Below, piece by piece: positions 22,285 through 32,250 of a DNA stretch of 44,592 nt. Location of the stretch: contig DATCIR010000050.1 of assembly GCA_036507695.1 (NCBI GenBank), positions 1 through 44,592 of the forward strand. The letters are read 5' to 3'. A program made the position numbers and the translations under genes. This DNA comes from Gammaproteobacteria bacterium. Lineage in GTDB: Bacteria > Pseudomonadota > Gammaproteobacteria > SZUA-152. How positions within the stretch are numbered: position 1 is the stretch's first letter; every line of letters starts with the position of its first letter. The notes under the pieces are model-generated. The model ran no database searches. It was given only the letters and a program-made list of their open reading frames with translations, and was not told where the DNA came from.

Positions 22285-22851
22285 TTATCCCGCGTTATCC
22301 GGAGATGTGTTTGTGTTCCGTGGCGCGGGTTGGGCGGAACTCACACTGGATTCGCTACGCAGTAATCCCGCGATAATCATATCCAACTCGTTATATAACA
22401 TGCGGCCGGGTTGCTTGAACCTGACAACGTTCGAGCCATCAATAACATAGGTCCATGGATCCCCGATTACGCCAAATGCCTTAAATGCTTGCGGGTTTTG
22501 ATATTGATCCATATGTAAAAAGATCACATCCTGCTCATACTTCACTAACAGGGCTTTTAACATCTGCAGTTGGTTATCACACATTGTGCAATGGCCCGGT
22601 GTGGCAAACTCCAGAATAATTGGCTTATTTAACGTCAAGGCTTCATCAAGCGACAACAGGTACATGCGCTCGTCCGGATAGCGATAGGTGGTAATTCGGC
22701 TAAAATCTCCGCTCACATCATGCAGAGTTTTGGTGCGTAAGCTGGGAGCGCTCATCCCTACCTTGAGACTGCTGTCATCAATGGAACAGCCCGCCAGCAT
22801 TATCCCCACCAAAAACAGCGGGAGAAACCGCAATGTCGCGCGTCTTTGCAT
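22285..22851 (-). CDS. thioredoxin-fold lipoprotein (CxxC)
   Basis: Start set at MQRR..., where TAATG overlaps the stop of the upstream gene. Lipobox LAGC. ILEFATPGHCTMCDNQ is a thioredoxin-like CxxC motif. Confidence 0.7.
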   Translation of the reverse strand: MQRRATLRFLPLFLVGIMLAGCSIDDSSLKVGMSAPSLRTKTLHDVSGDFSRITTYRYPDERMYLLSLDEALTLNKPIILEFATPGHCTMCDNQLQMLKALLVKYEQDVIFLHMDQYQNPQAFKAFGVIGDPWTYVIDGSNVVRFKQPGRMLYNELDMIIAGLLRSESSVSSAQPAPRNTNTSPDNAG

Positions 22852-23414
22852 TAGGCTTTCCTCCAACCCGCACAGGTTTTAAAAAGATTATACGCCCAAA
22901 TGAAATTAGCCAACAGCACCAGGGTTCCAAACATACCCATGGTCGCCAGTAACGGCTTAACCGTACTTTCAATTTGGTCAGGCGTGGAATTCACGCTGGC
23001 CAAACCGCCTAAAACACCCGCCGCGGAAAAAAACACCACCATACCGATCAGGCCGAAATTGTGCACCCAAAAATGCCATTTCACTAATCCAATACTATAT
23101 ATCGGACGCCTCACTAAACGCGGCACGACATAATAAACCGCGGCGAAAATCGCCATCTCCACCCAACCTAACAGGTTGATATGGGTATGCGCCCTAACAA
23201 TCAAATTCCCGTGCATGCGGTGATCCACAAAATACCTGAAATCGGCGATACCACCCATTAATGCGCCCCAGGTAAAGCCGATGATGCTGTAGATGATACA
23301 AGCATAAACAAACCACAGCGTGTACTTCGTGTATTCGGTATTTTGCGCCCAAGGCTCTGTAACTGCATTTGACACGTTATTTTCCTTATTCGCTTGTTGC
23401 GGGTTGCTTGTCAC
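22851..23414 (-). CDS. stand-alone 4-TM protein homologous to helices IX-XII of C-family heme-copper oxidase subunit I (copy 2)
   Basis: AHTHINLLGWVEMAIFAAVYYVVPRLVRRPIYSIGLVKWHFWVHNFG aligns with both the 7066-7590 product and helices X-XI of the 18780-20186 product. Confidence 0.75.
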   Translation of the reverse strand: MTSNPQQANKENNVSNAVTEPWAQNTEYTKYTLWFVYACIIYSIIGFTWGALMGGIADFRYFVDHRMHGNLIVRAHTHINLLGWVEMAIFAAVYYVVPRLVRRPIYSIGLVKWHFWVHNFGLIGMVVFFSAAGVLGGLASVNSTPDQIESTVKPLLATMGMFGTLVLLANFIWAYNLFKTCAGWRKA

Positions 23415-25036: not shown

Positions 25037-25203
25037 CCTCCCGATTTAAAAATCTGCCCGCTTTGACACACGTTGTTATGAATAACGACGCCGTACTTTA
25101 CGACGCTGTACTTTTCGATGCCATAACCAATTAATCTGTATCTTACCGTCACTTAACTGTATCCTATTTCAGAACCTTGTTGCAGTTGCGCGCCCGCCAT
25201 TAC

Positions 25204-25256
25204 CGTGACTTGAGTCGTGACTTGAGTCGTGACTTGAGTCGTGACTTGAGTCGTGA
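25204..25256. repeat. 12-bp tandem repeat CGTGACTTGAGT x4
   Basis: Perfect copies at 25204, 25216, 25228 and 25240, plus a partial fifth copy. Confidence 0.9.
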
Positions 25257-25353
25257 AATGAACCGCCACTTGATTCCCCGTAATCCCGACTCCGGTGGCA
25301 GCTAATATACGCGTGACGAAACAGCTTTGGATAAATAATACTGCGCTATTTTT

Positions 25354-25407
25354 CTTGAAACTTTATCTTGAAACTTTATCTTGAAACTTTGTCTTGAAAC
25401 TTTGTCT
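25354..25407. repeat. 13-bp tandem repeat CTTGAAACTTTRT x4
   Basis: Copies at 25354, 25367, 25380 and 25393. Confidence 0.9.
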
Positions 25408-25468
25408 ACTGCTTAAAACCGTTCGAATGACAAAGTATTGCTTGCGCTAAAAACGGTTATTACAGTTA

Positions 25469-25561
25469 TTAGGAATTTTTCTTTAACATGTATGCAGCAA
25501 CACCGAATGCCACTGCGGTAACAATTAAATATGTAATGAAGATTTCACCGTTAGTTAACAT
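25469..25561 (-). CDS. candidate 30-aa single-TM micropeptide
   Basis: Hand-translated MLTNGEIFITYLIVTAVAFGVAAYMLKKNS. A strong GAGGAGG lies 6 nt upstream of the ATG on the minus strand. Confidence 0.45.
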   Translation of the reverse strand: MLTNGEIFITYLIVTAVAFGVAAYMLKKNS

Positions 25562-25869
25562 ACAACCCCTCCTCAATAACCCGCTATTAAATAATAAATT
25601 GCTAACAATAAATTGGGCGTTTTTATATCATGACACAAGGCATGTGACAACTGTGTGCAATACTATATCACTCATCCTGCCGCAGGCCAACAATCTGCCT
25701 TCATGGTTGCCGCGGGTACGCCTTATGGCGCAACATCATGCCGCAATTATCGAAAAATCGCCACATTACAAACGGCATCGCAATTGACATTAAGTAAATA
25801 ACTTATTTAACTTTATCGCAGCGGCGTATCCTTACACATCTTTATATCCATGTAAACCTGCGGGATAAT

Positions 25870-25883
25870 TTGATCTGTATCCA
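25870..25883. promoter_or_regulatory. FNR/CRP-family-like box TTGAT-CTGT-ATCCA (9 of 10 to TTGAT-N4-ATCAA)
   Basis: Pattern match only. Lies in the roughly 1-kb noncoding region, 136 bp upstream of the 26019 start. A chance match is plausible. Confidence 0.2.
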
Positions 25884-26018
25884 TACCTACGCTCATACTC
25901 ATATACGATATAACTAACTTTGTTTAAACCAACTACAGATTAAACATAGTATAAGAAATACTTTTTTATCTATACCTGATGGAATAACTCGAGTATTGAC
26001 ACTCATAAACTGACTATC

Positions 26019-27002
26019 ATGATTCAACGCGGTTATCGAGCCTTGGTTTTATGGATTGCCTGGAGCGCAGTGGCAATTGTCTTCTATGCCAGCATCTATC
26101 AGGACACCGATGTCTGGAAGTTTGTCGAACAAGACTCATCAAGAATCACATGGGGAATTATCGCGTTATTTGCGGTGGGAATTGTTACCAGTTTTGCCCT
26201 CACCGTATTACTCACCCTGGAATCCATCAAGGTCGATTACCTCGAGTCCGTCGCAAAACAAACCGGCTGGCTGGGTGTGCAGGAAAGCGATAAACGGTTT
26301 TGCGTCGCTAATTTTTTTAATTCGCTGAAAACTGTAATGACCAACAACGGGGAGTTGAACATAGAAGCATTGGTCGAGGTTGAATTTGCGGTGTACCGCC
26401 GGACCGCACAGGCACTGGAGGTGATCGGCAATTTATTAATCACCCTCGGACTGGTTGGCACTGTCGTGGGCCTGACACTGACCCTGACCGGGCTCACCAG
26501 TTCGCTGGAGGCATTGGGTCATGATCAGGAACAACTGCTGCGTGGTTTGCGTGGCGCCATGGGCGGAATGGGCACCGCGTTCTACACCACGTTACTGGGA
26601 TCGGTTTTAGGCGGCGTTCTGCTTCGGGTCTATGGCCACATCGACGAAAATGGCGTTGATAGCCTCGAAAACGCCTTGACGCGAATTTGCCTGGTTTATT
26701 GTTCCGCCGACTTCAAACCATCCACGGAACGTGATATCCGCGCCTTGAATCAGGAAGTCCAGATATTGACCCAAAAAGTCGAATATTTAAAAAGTGTACT
26801 CAACGAATCCAAATCTGCCGTTGCGGATTTCGCAACGGAGTTAACTGAATTACAGCAGCGGGAAACCCGGTCTCACTCCCTGGAAGATACCATTAAACTG
26901 CGCAAAGATTATTTGGAAACGCTGCGCCAGGAATTTCAGCTCAAACGCATGATTCGCGGCGCATGGTGGAAGGCTTTTATAAAAGGATTTCGCAAAACCT
27001 GA
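26019..27002 (+). CDS. MotA/ExbB/TolQ-family channel protein with coiled-coil C-terminal tail
   Basis: 327 aa. Two N-terminal TM helices and a cytoplasmic loop. Then LITLGLVGTVVGLTLTL...GGMGTAFYTTLLGSVLGGVLLRVYG (MotA_ExbB signature). Then about 100 heptad-rich residues. Confidence 0.7.
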   Translation: MIQRGYRALVLWIAWSAVAIVFYASIYQDTDVWKFVEQDSSRITWGIIALFAVGIVTSFALTVLLTLESIKVDYLESVAKQTGWLGVQESDKRFCVANFFNSLKTVMTNNGELNIEALVEVEFAVYRRTAQALEVIGNLLITLGLVGTVVGLTLTLTGLTSSLEALGHDQEQLLRGLRGAMGGMGTAFYTTLLGSVLGGVLLRVYGHIDENGVDSLENALTRICLVYCSADFKPSTERDIRALNQEVQILTQKVEYLKSVLNESKSAVADFATELTELQQRETRSHSLEDTIKLRKDYLETLRQEFQLKRMIRGAWWKAFIKGFRKT

Positions 27003-27048
27003 GCAGCGCAAGTTAACGTGTGCATAACCTAACTGGCAGCCCCGTGTA

Positions 27049-27840
27049 ATGACTATGACAAGAAAACGCCGTTCGCTACCCCCGAATATTCACGAAAGCT
27101 TTTCCGACATCGCCTTATTGATGCTGGCCACATTCGTGTTTCTGCTGGTTATGATCATGATTACATCCAAGCTGGCTGAAGAAAATCAGCTTCCCCGGTT
27201 AAAGGCCAGCGTCTCCGATTTGGAGAAAAAACTGGAAAACGCCGAGTCCATTAACCGGCGTCTGTTGGGCGATCTGAACAGCATGGTCAATATGACCGTT
27301 GAATCTCAAATGGAACATTCCCTCGAAGCCGTCGGCTTGGGCAAGAACAGCAAAAACCGCAAGGACTTTGACCTGTTTGTGCATGGCTTGGAAAACATTC
27401 CCGGTGAAAGCCTGCACCTGATCGTTGACGGCACGGGTTCCATGCACGGCGCAACCACGTTTTTAATTCCGGTACTGCGCGTGATTGTTATTCGCTCCGG
27501 CAAACGCCTGGATGCAATCACTTGGTTTTCTGATGGCAACGCGGCAACGTACCAAGGCACCATGGGCAGCATGTTCGATAACCTGATGAGTGGCGCGCCG
27601 TTCATCGGATCCCAGGAAACCATCGGCAAGGCATTTCGTCACGCCGCCCGCGAAGCGCCCGTTCCGGGCGCTTATTTGCTGATTGGCGATGAACCCAGTG
27701 ACGACACGATCCATCCTTCCGATATTCCCAGCCCGGTGTTTGCCATCCCTATTGGCAAGGAGAATCCTGATACCGCGTGGGCCTACCGCAAATTGGCGGA
27801 AGAAACCGGCGGCAAAATGCTGCAGCTGGAATTTCAGTAG
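27049..27840 (+). CDS. MotB/ExbD-like single-TM protein with periplasmic coiled coil and vWA-like domain
   Basis: Basic N-terminus and an Asp-bearing TM helix, SFSDIALLMLATFVFLLVMIMI (compare MotB YADFMTAMMAFFLVMW). MIDAS-like VDGTGSM, GSQETIGKAF and LLIGDEPSDD. Confidence 0.55.
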   Translation: MTMTRKRRSLPPNIHESFSDIALLMLATFVFLLVMIMITSKLAEENQLPRLKASVSDLEKKLENAESINRRLLGDLNSMVNMTVESQMEHSLEAVGLGKNSKNRKDFDLFVHGLENIPGESLHLIVDGTGSMHGATTFLIPVLRVIVIRSGKRLDAITWFSDGNAATYQGTMGSMFDNLMSGAPFIGSQETIGKAFRHAAREAPVPGAYLLIGDEPSDDTIHPSDIPSPVFAIPIGKENPDTAWAYRKLAEETGGKMLQLEFQ

Positions 27841-27994: not shown

Positions 27995-29485
27995 ATGCGC
28001 TATCCAGTAATATTTGATCGTATCCCCAAGTCCGCCTGGTACCTATTGAGTATGTGCGTCTGGGGCGGCGCCGTTATCGGCTTCCAGTTGATCCGGTTTA
28101 CCGCTTATAACCTGGATGAAGGCGCCGCCATGGCCTTGCTGCTGAATTGGTCCGTTTCCGACCAGGTGGTGAATCCAGTGACCACCTTTGGCGGACCGGA
28201 TTTTCGCGCCTTGCTGTTCATACCCCTGGGACTGTACTGGCCTGGCAGCATGGTTGCGGCGAAAATTCTTAGCTTGATTTTTTGCTTTATCGCCGCGTTG
28301 TTCCTTTTTCGCTGGAGCAGTGAAACCGGCGATAAGGAATCGGCATTGGTCGCCACTGGCTTATTGCTGATAACACCGGTGCTTATTTATCTCGCCGATA
28401 CGATCAACACCGGGTCTTTTCTGCTGGCCGTGTTTGGCGCCGGTATGTATCTCGACAAAAAATACCGCGCTTCGCCGCACAGTGTCAGCGGCCTGTACTT
28501 CACCCAGATGCTGGTGATCGCCGTGTCGGTCACATTACACCCGATGGGATTGGCCTATCCTCTGGCGCTCGCCTGGCAGTGGTACAAGAACCCCAAATCG
28601 GACCAGCAGAAAAAACAGGTGTGGACAGGCATCGGGATTACCGTGTTAATCATTCTAGTCATGCAAACCGGCTGGATCGCGATTGCCTGGGGCCGCAACC
28701 CGCTCACTGCATTGGATAACGCGGTTATGGGCTATAACTTGCGCGAAACCGACACCGCGCATTGGATCGCAGGCGCGGTTGCCGCGGCGCTCCTGGCGTT
28801 ACTTATTTACCGCGACTTCACAACACTCACCCGCAACCTGTTGGGCAGTACGCTTTTGTTCAGTGTTTTTATTGGTTTGAGCGCAGCGGACCAGAACTGG
28901 GCCATGATCGCCATCGCCTTATTACTGTATCGGGGCATACCCGCCCTGATCGCCTTTAACAAATCCATCCGGGTACCGGGCTTTATCGGCCAACGCGGCC
29001 TGGTTTTTTTTGCCATCATGGCGGTATCCCTGTTGTTTATGCAGGCAGACAAAAGTTATGCGCTGCAAAAAATGAGCGGGGCGCTCACCCCGCGCGACCA
29101 GCTGATCCAACGCCTGGCGGAAGAAGCGGCGGATCCCGGCCAACCGTTCCTGGCGGCGAGCCAATGGCCTGCGCAAACCATGATTGTCTGCCGGCGGGAC
29201 GTTTTCAAGCTGCCCCCGGCGCGCGCAAACAGCCAGGAGTTTCTAAAAAGCCTGGGCAGCATAACGCATATCGTGTTCGATCATCGCGATATCAACAATC
29301 ACGCACTGGCGCGCAATATTGCCGACCTCGGCGGTTACACAGCAACGGTCGATATCCAAACCTCTGGCGTGATTGTAAAAATACGCGCATCCGCGGACGA
29401 ACCGGCCGATAATGCCGGTAACGGGATTGATTCAAGCGGGAGAAATCCGCAGGACACTGGCAAGCAGCCTCCCTCTACAAATTAA
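27995..29485 (+). CDS. polytopic membrane protein, GT-C (ArnT/PMT_2)-like glycosyltransferase candidate
   Basis: 496 aa with about 11 TM helices in the first 350 aa. An acidic first-loop motif, YNLDEGAAM, as in GT-C enzymes. Soluble C-terminal domain. Confidence 0.5.
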   Translation: MRYPVIFDRIPKSAWYLLSMCVWGGAVIGFQLIRFTAYNLDEGAAMALLLNWSVSDQVVNPVTTFGGPDFRALLFIPLGLYWPGSMVAAKILSLIFCFIAALFLFRWSSETGDKESALVATGLLLITPVLIYLADTINTGSFLLAVFGAGMYLDKKYRASPHSVSGLYFTQMLVIAVSVTLHPMGLAYPLALAWQWYKNPKSDQQKKQVWTGIGITVLIILVMQTGWIAIAWGRNPLTALDNAVMGYNLRETDTAHWIAGAVAAALLALLIYRDFTTLTRNLLGSTLLFSVFIGLSAADQNWAMIAIALLLYRGIPALIAFNKSIRVPGFIGQRGLVFFAIMAVSLLFMQADKSYALQKMSGALTPRDQLIQRLAEEAADPGQPFLAASQWPAQTMIVCRRDVFKLPPARANSQEFLKSLGSITHIVFDHRDINNHALARNIADLGGYTATVDIQTSGVIVKIRASADEPADNAGNGIDSSGRNPQDTGKQPPSTN

Positions 29486-31518: not shown

Positions 31519-32250
31519 TTAAAATTTATAACTCGCGCCCAGGCTTGCCATGGAAATACTGAATGCGTCCGCATCGATAAGCTGCATAATCTCCAGATTG
31601 ATATAGATATCCAGAGGCGCTTTATATGCCGCGCCCAGCCCGTAAGAAAGGCTCGATTGCGTGTCGTCCTGGAGAAAAATTGTATCTCCGTCCAATTGCG
31701 CAACGGCAATTCCCAGCAATCCATATACCGATACATAGTCCGAAAATTCATGGGTTGCCCGCGCATAGATACCCGCATAATAATTGATGCTCAGTGATAC
31801 ATTCTGGCCGTTCACGGTATTGGAATCATCGGTCACATCAAAACCAAAGTGACTTTCCACCGCCACCACGGGAATACGGTCGGGGAACAGAATCACCCCC
31901 ACCTTCGCCCGCATATTGATCGGATTGTAGGTGACTCCTAATGCATCCATACTGGAAAAGTTCAGGTCCGCGCCCGCGTACGCCACCTTTTCTCTGGCTA
32001 CTTCGGCTTGTGCTTGCTCTTGTTCCTGAGGCCCTTGCTCCCGCGACCTTTGTTCCTGAGAACTTGGCTCCTGAGTCCTTTGATCCTGAGGGATTGGTTC
32101 CTGAGGGATTGGTTCCTGAGGAGATGGTTCCTGAGCAAGAGCGTGATTGGCAAAAGCCAACAGCGCATGCAAAGCCAGCACTGCCCAAACCATCCTGGAT
32201 TGACATCGCAAACTGTACACCACGCACCCCTTATCACGAATTATTGACAA
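31519..32250 (-). CDS. outer-membrane beta-barrel protein with Pro/Gln/Glu-rich repeat linker
   Basis: Signal-like ALHALLAFANHALA. QEPSPQEPIPQEPIPQDQRTQEP repeats. Alternating beta-strand pattern ending in the YKF terminal aromatic. An alternative start is at 32193 (MVWAV). Confidence 0.7.
   Translation of the reverse strand: MSIIRDKGCVVYSLRCQSRMVWAVLALHALLAFANHALAQEPSPQEPIPQEPIPQDQRTQEPSSQEQRSREQGPQEQEQAQAEVAREKVAYAGADLNFSSMDALGVTYNPINMRAKVGVILFPDRIPVVAVESHFGFDVTDDSNTVNGQNVSLSINYYAGIYARATHEFSDYVSVYGLLGIAVAQLDGDTIFLQDDTQSSLSYGLGAAYKAPLDIYINLEIMQLIDADAFSISMASLGASYKF

Follow-up and report, generated by a model that had tools for sequence, protein, structure and literature searches.

The window analysed here, a whole 44.6-kb contig from an uncultured gammaproteobacterium, carries a pair of adjacent genes that, judging from predicted folds and conserved residues, is a separate variant of the recently predicted von Willebrand factor A (vWA)-type 5:2 motor. 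The analysis established the family and fold of both encoded proteins, the conservation of their Asp, Thr, and metal ion-dependent adhesion site (MIDAS) positions, and the strict linkage of the two genes as an operon. Our preferred reading, at a probability of about 0.6, is that the pair forms a self-contained operon for an ion-driven 5:2-type motor of the MotAB/ExbBD/TolQR/ZorAB superfamily, with a vWA head that couples to an envelope partner. An initial annotation, made from the sequence alone, had proposed the pair as a new motor module of this type; both open reading frames (ORFs) lay where it had placed them and all of the motifs it quoted were present on translation. The two genes are:

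26019-27002, + strand: gene 1, 327 amino acids, A subunit, MotA/ExbB/TolQ-family channel protein

27049-27840, + strand: gene 2, 263 amino acids from the first ATG, B subunit

They are 46 nt apart in the window. In homologs and in the NCBI annotation, gene 2 begins at its third codon (27055) and has 261 amino acids, so that the Asp numbered D20 in the 263-residue form is D18 in the 261-residue form; the MIDAS positions D125/T127/S129 follow the 261-residue form. Cluster matches numbered 677 for the gene 2 family and 555 for the gene 1 family, with mean column identities of 74-77%. This family size and column identity indicate that gene 1 and gene 2 are real genes and not chance ORFs.

The channel subunit

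Pfam and fold matches together support gene 1 as a channel subunit of the MotA/ExbB/TolQ family, the type that had been assigned to it from its motifs. Gene 1 scored 34.6 bits (E=1.8e-8) against Pfam MotA_ExbB (PF01618), which has a gathering cut-off of 22.9. The Mariprofundus homolog scored 29.2 bits against the same model, and a PF01618 match was precomputed for all listed gene 1 homologs. In PADLOC the best matches were ZorA profiles, with E values down to 1.7e-8. NCBIfam ZorA scores were 16.9 against a cut-off of 100 and 16.2 against a cut-off of 500, and the scores against NCBIfam MotA models were far under their cut-offs.

Structural models of both proteins were made with AlphaFold2 (AF2) from shallow alignments, in which the sequences shared 60-90% identity with the query. 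The gene 1 model (35 homologs; predicted local distance difference test, pLDDT, of 72) consisted of four membrane helices and a last helix at residues 235-323. Its top 50 Foldseek matches in the PDB were all A subunits of 5:2 motors (ExbB, TolQ, PomA, ZorA, and MotA). The best were ExbB/TolQ structures (5sv0, 9ddo, 6ye4, 9kpz, 8odt), with E values from 5e-4 and target TM-scores of 0.5-0.6, up to 0.61; PomA, ZorA, and MotA ranked after them. Profile searches of PDB sequences returned only coiled-coil noise and MotA at E ~0.1 for the whole protein, and ZorA and MotA at E=0.4-1.5 for the channel core alone. This core contains the third and fourth transmembrane (TM) helices:

26418-26633, + strand: channel core of gene 1, TM3, periplasmic loop, and TM4, GNLLITLGLVGTVVGLT ... 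GMGTAFYTTLLGSVLGGVLLR

The gene 1 translation carries LGLVGTVVGL and GMGTAFYTTLLGSVLGG. Across the gene 1 family, the TM3 motif GNLLITLGLxGTVxGLT and the TM4 motif GMGTAFYTTLLG...GGxLLR were invariant. Residues T142, G144, G147, T148, V149, G151, F188, T190, T191, G194, G198, G199, L201, L202, and R203 were retained in homologs down to 24% identity. The core stretch could be aligned to the TM motifs of ZorA and MotA, such that T148 (in GTVxG) and T190/T191 (in AFYTT) lined up with the GT and AF-x-T-S motifs of ZorA. T148 and T190/T191 are probably equivalent to T148/T181 in ExbB and T145/T178 in TolQ, and would belong to the conserved polar and Gly residues that line the ion path of this family.

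Directly after TM4, on the cytoplasmic side, gene 1 has a C-x3-C motif (RICLVYCSAD; C224-C228, 26688-26702). Both cysteines were invariant in the gammaproteobacterial clade, Zetaproteobacteria kept the first only, and neither was present in the distant locus L002 described below. With five copies per predicted ring, the motif could be a metal or redox site.

The B subunit and its vWA head

The fold model and conserved residues support a MotB/ExbD-type assignment for gene 2, a single-pass protein whose TM helix leads through a coiled-coil stalk to a predicted vWA-fold head. From its basic N-terminus (MTRKRRS), the protein runs through a TM helix bearing an Asp (residues 19-37, the only TM helix) into the stalk and then the head:

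27091-27174, + strand: trans-pore-type TM helix of gene 2, HESFSDIALLMLATFVFLLVMIMITSKL, with the Asp codon (D20/D18) at 27106-27108

27178-27288, + strand: putative coiled-coil stalk of gene 2 in the periplasm, ~37 residues, about 5 nm long were it helical throughout

27352-27837, + strand: compact vWA-fold domain of gene 2, with vWA-only Foldseek matches and MIDAS-type residues

Translation confirmed SFSDIALLMLATFVFLLVM in the TM region. F16, S17, and D18 were invariant in 39 gene 2 sequences, with D18 near the cytoplasmic end of the helix, and D18 was also preserved in two distant relatives, P0244 and P0250. Only three profile families recurred for gene 2, namely MotB_plug, ExbD, and ZorB, all at sub-threshold scores. 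Gene 2 scored 14.7 bits against MotB_plug (cut-off 24, E=0.02), and weak matches to this model occurred in 13/20 members tested compared with 3/20 for ExbD, so the helix matches the MotB_plug profile more often than that of ExbD. PADLOC ZorB profiles matched at E values of 0.012-0.026.

The gene 2 AF2 model (mean pLDDT 78.5, from 39 sequences) had a continuous helix at residues 12-77 comprising the TM segment and stalk, two short helices, and an alpha/beta domain at 119-250. Heptad periodicity as strong as that of residues 42-78 was reached by a fraction of 0.0015 of shuffled sequences. Foldseek matches of the model in the PDB at E up to 0.02 were exclusively vWA-type domains. The best was CLCA1 (6pyx; E=1e-5, probability 1.00, target TM-score 0.60), with NorD (9qhe) second and further matches to VWF A2, ITIH1, CMG2, and integrins. 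No OmpA-like, TolR, or ExbD periplasmic domain was found in gene 2 by Foldseek at that threshold or by Pfam. pLDDT within the vWA domain was mostly 80-93.

Three MIDAS-type motifs lie in this domain: DGTGS (27427-27441), the E-T of GSQETIG(KAF), and the D of LLIGDEPSD. D125, T127, G128, S129, E188, G211, D212, and E213 were invariant, including in distant members of ~35% identity. In the model, D125-x-T127-x-S129 comes right after strand 119-125, E188-T189 precedes helix 190-200, and D212 follows strand 206-211, which by sequence order and predicted secondary structure places these residues at the canonical MIDAS positions. The canonical motif is D-x-S-x-S and that of gene 2 is D-x-T-x-S, with Thr for Ser at the second position. 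The description of gene 2 as a MotB/ExbD-type protein with a TM Asp, a coiled coil, and a vWA-like MIDAS head in place of an OmpA or TolR domain was therefore upheld by the fold search and the invariant residues. Sequence models did not see the vWA domain: Pfam vWA models had no match in 20 gene 2 members even at E up to 10, NCBIfam detected no vWA domain in gene 2, and the fold search alone recovered it. Gene 2 is labelled in the sources as hypothetical, "phage scaffolding protein", or "FtsL".

Distribution and linkage

A gene 2 profile search of 1.84 billion representative proteins returned essentially one full-length cluster at 50% identity, fragments, and three distant proteins, and reached no other vWA cluster and no generic vWA proteins. 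At the level of sequence, the gene 2 family is thus compact and isolated. Relatives occurred in at least 149 species-representative genomes, belonging to uncultured Gammaproteobacteria (labelled Chromatiales, Ectothiorhodospiraceae, Ca. Tenderia, and Thiotrichales) and to Zetaproteobacteria, which include a cultured carrier, isolate Mariprofundus erugo P3. The family thus occurs in sulfur- and iron-oxidising bacteria and has a narrow taxonomic range.

Gene 1 stood directly upstream of gene 2 in 77/77 fetched loci where both could be located, as expected if the two genes are syntenic beyond this contig. The median gap was 17 nt and some pairs overlapped by 1-4 nt. Four apparent exceptions from ORF calling were artefacts and were resolved with tblastn; a 783-nt overlap of the two genes in locus L048 came from a frameshifted gene 1 and was rejected as a fusion. 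All mapped loci had one gene 2 homolog each, and no gene besides gene 1 and gene 2 was universally linked to the pair in them. Apart from gene 3 and a cytochrome cluster, both described below, the recurrent neighbours were housekeeping genes. They include those for mpl, RNase D, ApaG, and cbb3 oxidase, in a context that is syntenic across species. No plasmid or phage relatives of either protein were found. The setting of the pair was shown to be chromosomal and vertically inherited.

Of the three distant gene 2 relatives, P0244 and P0250 kept the TM Asp and P0259 did not. P0244 (~35% identity, locus L002) was again downstream of a MotA_ExbB gene and retained the motif NxHES..D, P0250 lay on a 1.3-kb contig with its neighbours beyond view, and P0259 had no adjoining MotA gene. 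Locus L002 (491-4635), on a GC-rich metagenomic contig, contained two different MotA_ExbB modules in tandem. The first paired a tail-less 250-amino-acid A subunit with the trans-pore helix (TPH)-coiled-coil-vWA partner P0244 and was followed by an 83-amino-acid ORF; the second paired a 469-amino-acid, long-tailed MotA_ExbB protein with a 260-amino-acid protein comprising a TM helix, a coiled coil, and a beta-rich region. A search of 5.8 billion protein clusters with the 250-amino-acid A subunit returned the query itself only, with no bridging relatives. Several copies of this gammaproteobacterial-type pair that diverge from one another (P0003, P0011, P0117, P0125, and P0237; 61-89% identity to the proteins of the window) are filed at NCBI under the Nostocales cyanobacterium Kaarinaea lacus. 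These copies are probably on contigs of associated bacteria inside that assembly.

Relation to known motors

The closest precedent is a family described in section 8 and Fig. 4c-d of PMC12204202 (Mol Biol Evol 2025), in which tolQ homologs co-occur "extremely tightly" with TM-tethered vWA proteins. Those vWA proteins, seeded from Idiomarina loihiensis, carry a conserved Asp in a trans-pore helix and occur with no tolR/exbD; AlphaFold 3 models put the helix within the pentamer, and in the proposed mechanism the vWA protein supplies the dimer in the pore of a 5:2 motor. The vWA genes are "predominantly found in heterologous pairs" and, according to the figure legend, disordered regions lie close to the vWA domain (PMC12204202). 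Our pair shares the tight linkage of a tolQ-like gene to a TM-tethered vWA gene, the lack of tolR/exbD, and the conserved Asp of the trans-pore helix. It differs in having one vWA gene per A gene, a heptad coiled coil and short helices joining the vWA domain instead of disordered regions, an extra N-terminal TM helix and a ~90-residue coiled-coil tail on the A subunit, a vWA domain invisible to sequence models, and a narrow taxonomic range. Because the gene 2 profile reached no other vWA cluster among the 1.84 billion proteins and Pfam vWA models did not match, the present family appears separate from the TPH-vWA family in sequence, the Idiomarina proteins being compared by description only.

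The TolQ-like/vWA motor design was thus already predicted computationally in 2025, and the pair described here is a distinct lineage of it with a different architecture. Since PMC12204202 already describes TolQ-like and TPH-vWA pairs, the design principle is not new, contrary to the initial annotation, and the possibility raised there that the pair might belong to a described system was partly realised. Its statement that no characterised stator family outputs through a periplasmic vWA domain is still literally true because the published description is computational only. An mBio 2025 survey of non-flagellar MotAB relatives made no mention of vWA outputs. A paper on a stalk gene cluster of Zetaproteobacteria (PMC8250860) was considered and set aside as irrelevant, as MotA appears there in a reference only.

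Among characterised motors, ExbB-ExbD and TolQ-TolR provided the best structural matches of gene 1 and share its TM Thr/Gly motifs, an Asp-bearing partner helix, and periplasmic output. In contrast to these systems, the pair has no TonB/TolA partner and no ExbD/TolR periplasmic domain, and no TonB-dependent receptor or Pal/TolB genes lie near it. MotA-MotB and PomA-PomB resemble the pair in their four-TM A subunit, the S/A-D motif opening the partner TM helix, and their operon arrangement. The pair lacks their OmpA-like peptidoglycan-binding domain, MotA cytoplasmic torque-generating domain, and nearby flagellar genes, and the gene 1 structure is less similar to MotA/PomA than to ExbB/TolQ. 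Ton, Tol-Pal, flagellar, gliding, and Zorya effector genes were all absent from 9-43 kb of the window, which agrees with the initial reading of the surroundings.

ZorA-ZorB gave the best PADLOC matches and is similar in the C-terminal coiled-coil tail of its A subunit and the MotB-like Asp helix of its B subunit. The ZorA profiles span 420-699 positions, however, and the gene 1 tail has only about 90 residues. ZorB ends in a peptidoglycan-binding domain, whereas gene 2 ends in a vWA domain. These likenesses raise the idea of a Zorya-like or other anti-phage defence module in which envelope perturbation is sensed through the periplasmic domain, and the top PADLOC profiles and the coiled-coil tail would fit it. 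Yet the best NCBIfam ZorA score was far below the cut-off (16.9 against 100), no ZorC, ZorD, ZorE-like, or other effector genes were found nearby, and identities of 50-90% across species are more like those of core genes than of a defence island. The housekeeping synteny and the lack of plasmid or phage relatives led us to rule out a defence or mobile-element reading, to which we give scarcely any weight.

A model for the motor and its output

In the reading that we prefer, a ring like that of ExbB or TolQ would be built from five gene 1 subunits, with two gene 2 N-terminal helices inserted into its pore. The invariant Asp of gene 2 would lie opposite the invariant Thr/Gly residues of gene 1 TM3 and TM4, and its protonation and deprotonation would power a relative rotation between ring and dimer, the coupling ion most likely being the proton. 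On the periplasmic side the dimer would continue as a ~5-nm coiled coil of two strands that carries two compact vWA heads at its end; this periplasmic placement of the head is by analogy with MotB/ExbD topology. There, the MIDAS-type site (D-x-T-x-S, T, D) would use a divalent cation to bind a ligand in the envelope by one of its acidic residues, and the head, serving as a tether or force transducer, would provide a mechanical link from the motor to a partner in the periplasm or outer membrane. Among the output or anchor elements, the vWA head alone is retained in all lineages, and we therefore favour mechanical coupling through it. The independent prediction of such an arrangement for another TolQ-like/vWA family (PMC12204202) also speaks for the model. 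Stoichiometry, coupling ion, topology, ligand, and role in the cell are inferences of this reading.

Several points weigh against this model. Homology is the basis for assuming a 5:2 complex that rotates. Confidence in the gene 1 model is only moderate (pLDDT 72, predicted TM-score 0.52), every B-subunit profile match of gene 2 fell below threshold, and the vWA assignment comes from an AF2 model of a shallow alignment, with no support from sequence models. No conserved third gene hints at a ligand or a process. Finally, the A subunit has a conserved tail, which could mean that output is cytoplasmic, as in MotA and ZorA, and that the vWA head is a static anchor:

26721-26999, + strand: cytoplasmic helical tail of gene 1 (residues 235-327), about 90 residues, AF2 helix 235-323

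The initial annotation had described this tail as heptad-rich, about 100 residues long, and reminiscent of a shortened ZorA tail. Its proximal part (236-275) did show a 3.5-residue hydrophobic periodicity, the observed power of which was reached in 0/2000 shuffles, and the distal part (276-315) was not significant in the same test. The likeness to ZorA held insofar as the tail is a ~90-residue helix into which the PADLOC ZorA1 profile aligns (gene 1 residues 132-306), and failed in L002, where the A subunit has no tail. Model confidence dips around residues 281-290, a stretch that is variable and gapped in the family alignment, and because the two coincide a hinge is possible there. The tail occurs in the gammaproteobacterial and zetaproteobacterial lineages, with conserved ends, a poorly conserved middle, and a basic, amphipathic C-terminus (RGAWWKAFIKGFRK).

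The main rival to our preferred reading builds on this tail. As in the MotAB/ZorAB model of an anchored stator, the vWA heads would fix the B dimer, and the tail of the rotating gene 1 pentamer would act on a cytoplasmic or membrane target encoded elsewhere. The tail's helical character, significant heptad pattern, and conserved ends speak for such an arrangement, as do the ZorA1 alignment covering the start of the tail and a gene 2 TM sequence closer to MotB/ZorB than to ExbD. We nevertheless regard it as unlikely, given that the A subunit of L002 is still paired with a TPH-coiled-coil-vWA protein in spite of having no tail, that the middle of the tail is poorly conserved, that no conserved cytoplasmic partner gene lies nearby, and that the gene 1 fold is nearer to ExbB/TolQ than to MotA/ZorA. 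Under coupling through the vWA head, the tail would be a lineage-specific accessory, either a brace folding back onto the membrane or a second output.

Gene 3 and other neighbours

Downstream of the pair in the window is a gene that had been called GT-C-like in the initial annotation:

27995-29485, + strand: gene 3, 496 amino acids, polytopic membrane protein, weakly GT-C-like

That label received weak support. Members of the gene 3 family have about 490-500 amino acids, and 1/18 matched PMT_2 (3e-5) and Glyco_transf_22 (1e-4); a gene 3 profile search against PDB sequences gave nothing usable (best E=1.2). Of about 80 loci, ORF calling placed gene 3 no more than ~4 kb from the pair in 28 and tblastn in 25, either downstream, upstream, or ~3 kb off on the opposite strand in Zetaproteobacteria (arrangements seen in the window and in loci L053, L059, L061, L082, and L084). 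The recurrence of gene 3 in three arrangements that extend to distant Zetaproteobacteria, together with the weak GT-C matches, could point to a three-component envelope system in which the pair, for example, energises or positions periplasmic glycosylation or polymer handling. In about two thirds of loci, however, gene 3 was not within 8 kb, the GT-C label derives from a single member, and the zetaproteobacterial copy is on the opposite strand with unrelated genes between. We find a three-component system improbable and consider gene 3 a lineage-specific neighbour outside the invariant module, possibly an accessory partner.

In about 25 loci a divergent cluster of cytochrome c and COX1-fragment genes stands beside the pair. 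In the window this cluster is on the minus strand and includes:

22851-23414, - strand: stand-alone COX1-like protein, 187 amino acids, matching only the C-terminal third of COX1 (profile positions 292-427)

This gene overlaps the adjoining cytochrome c gene and both are kept together in about 22-25 loci. The COX1-like protein appears to be a separate small membrane subunit and not a pseudogene fragment. Such neighbours suggest that the pair might serve the respiratory cluster of cytochromes c, COX1-like fragment, and cbb3-type oxidase, either in NorD/CbbO-like maturation or in membrane-potential sensing. The retention of the cytochrome cluster would agree with this, and so would the rank of NorD, from the NorQD complex, as second-best structural match of the vWA domain and the invariant cytoplasmic C-x3-C of the gammaproteobacterial clade. 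The cluster is not present at most loci, though, and for that reason the association looks like the inherited synteny of one clade. NorD/CbbO also act together with a MoxR AAA+ partner in the cytoplasm, and no gene for one was detected in 9-43 kb of the window or in the flanks of loci L001 and L084. In addition, the NorD match was no better than generic vWA matches and the vWA domain is expected to be periplasmic. A respiratory role is accordingly very improbable in our estimation.

Upstream of gene 1 is a gap of 982 nt (25037-26018) that had been taken as about 1 kb of noncoding DNA. Its length was as described and it is coding in part:

25469-25561, - strand: ORF for a 30-amino-acid single-TM peptide, MLTNGEIFITYLIVTAVAFGVAAYMLKKNS, conserved, with a GAGGAGG-like ribosome-binding site ahead

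The peptide ORF stands at the head of the cytochrome c/COX1-fragment gene cluster and was kept in loci L001, L007, and L010 with mostly synonymous or conservative changes; the peptide had no Pfam match. The gap also contains two perfect or near-perfect tandem arrays, of 12 nt x 4.4 copies at 25204-25256 (CGTGACTTGAGT) and 13 nt x 4.5 copies at 25349-25407 (TTTATCTTGAAAC), neither of which is shared by the closest relative, L007. An Rfam scan of the window returned no matches, and promoter and terminator scans gave no signal above the shuffled expectation. Beyond gene 3 the window encodes an outer-membrane protein:

31519-32250, - strand: outer-membrane beta-barrel protein (OMP_b-brl) with a QEP-rich low-complexity N-terminal region (QEPSPQEPIPQEPIPQDQRTQEP...)

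Significance

Flagella, TonB-dependent uptake, Tol-Pal maintenance of the envelope, gliding, and Zorya defence all run on ion-driven 5:2 motors, and new output modules reveal further ways of turning membrane potential into mechanical work. A MIDAS-type vWA head on the B subunit would amount to a plug-in adhesion output that replaces the cell-wall anchor. Motors with such heads escape annotation, with gene 2 mislabelled or hypothetical and unseen by vWA sequence models. Specialists aware of PMC12204202 would not find the pair very surprising; it is still a minimal, testable example. The family is a very simple version of the design, with two genes, a homodimeric B subunit, a predicted rigid stalk, invariant Asp and MIDAS residues that can be mutated, and a cultured carrier.

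A bolder and unlikely extension is that the pair is an independent, sequence-isolated 5:2-motor lineage confined to sulfur- and iron-oxidising Gammaproteobacteria and Zetaproteobacteria, whose homodimeric B subunit carries two MIDAS heads on a rigid stalk and whose A ring bears a short, Zorya-like tail. Metal-dependent binding in the periplasm would then be linked to cytoplasmic output, or the reverse, and the motor would be a housekeeping trans-envelope mechanotransducer in a process new to 5:2 motors. If so, this mechanotransducer would work without a TonB, TolA, peptidoglycan-binding, or effector component, and it could, for example, help these chemolithotrophs to position or turn over a structure of the envelope or outside the cell.

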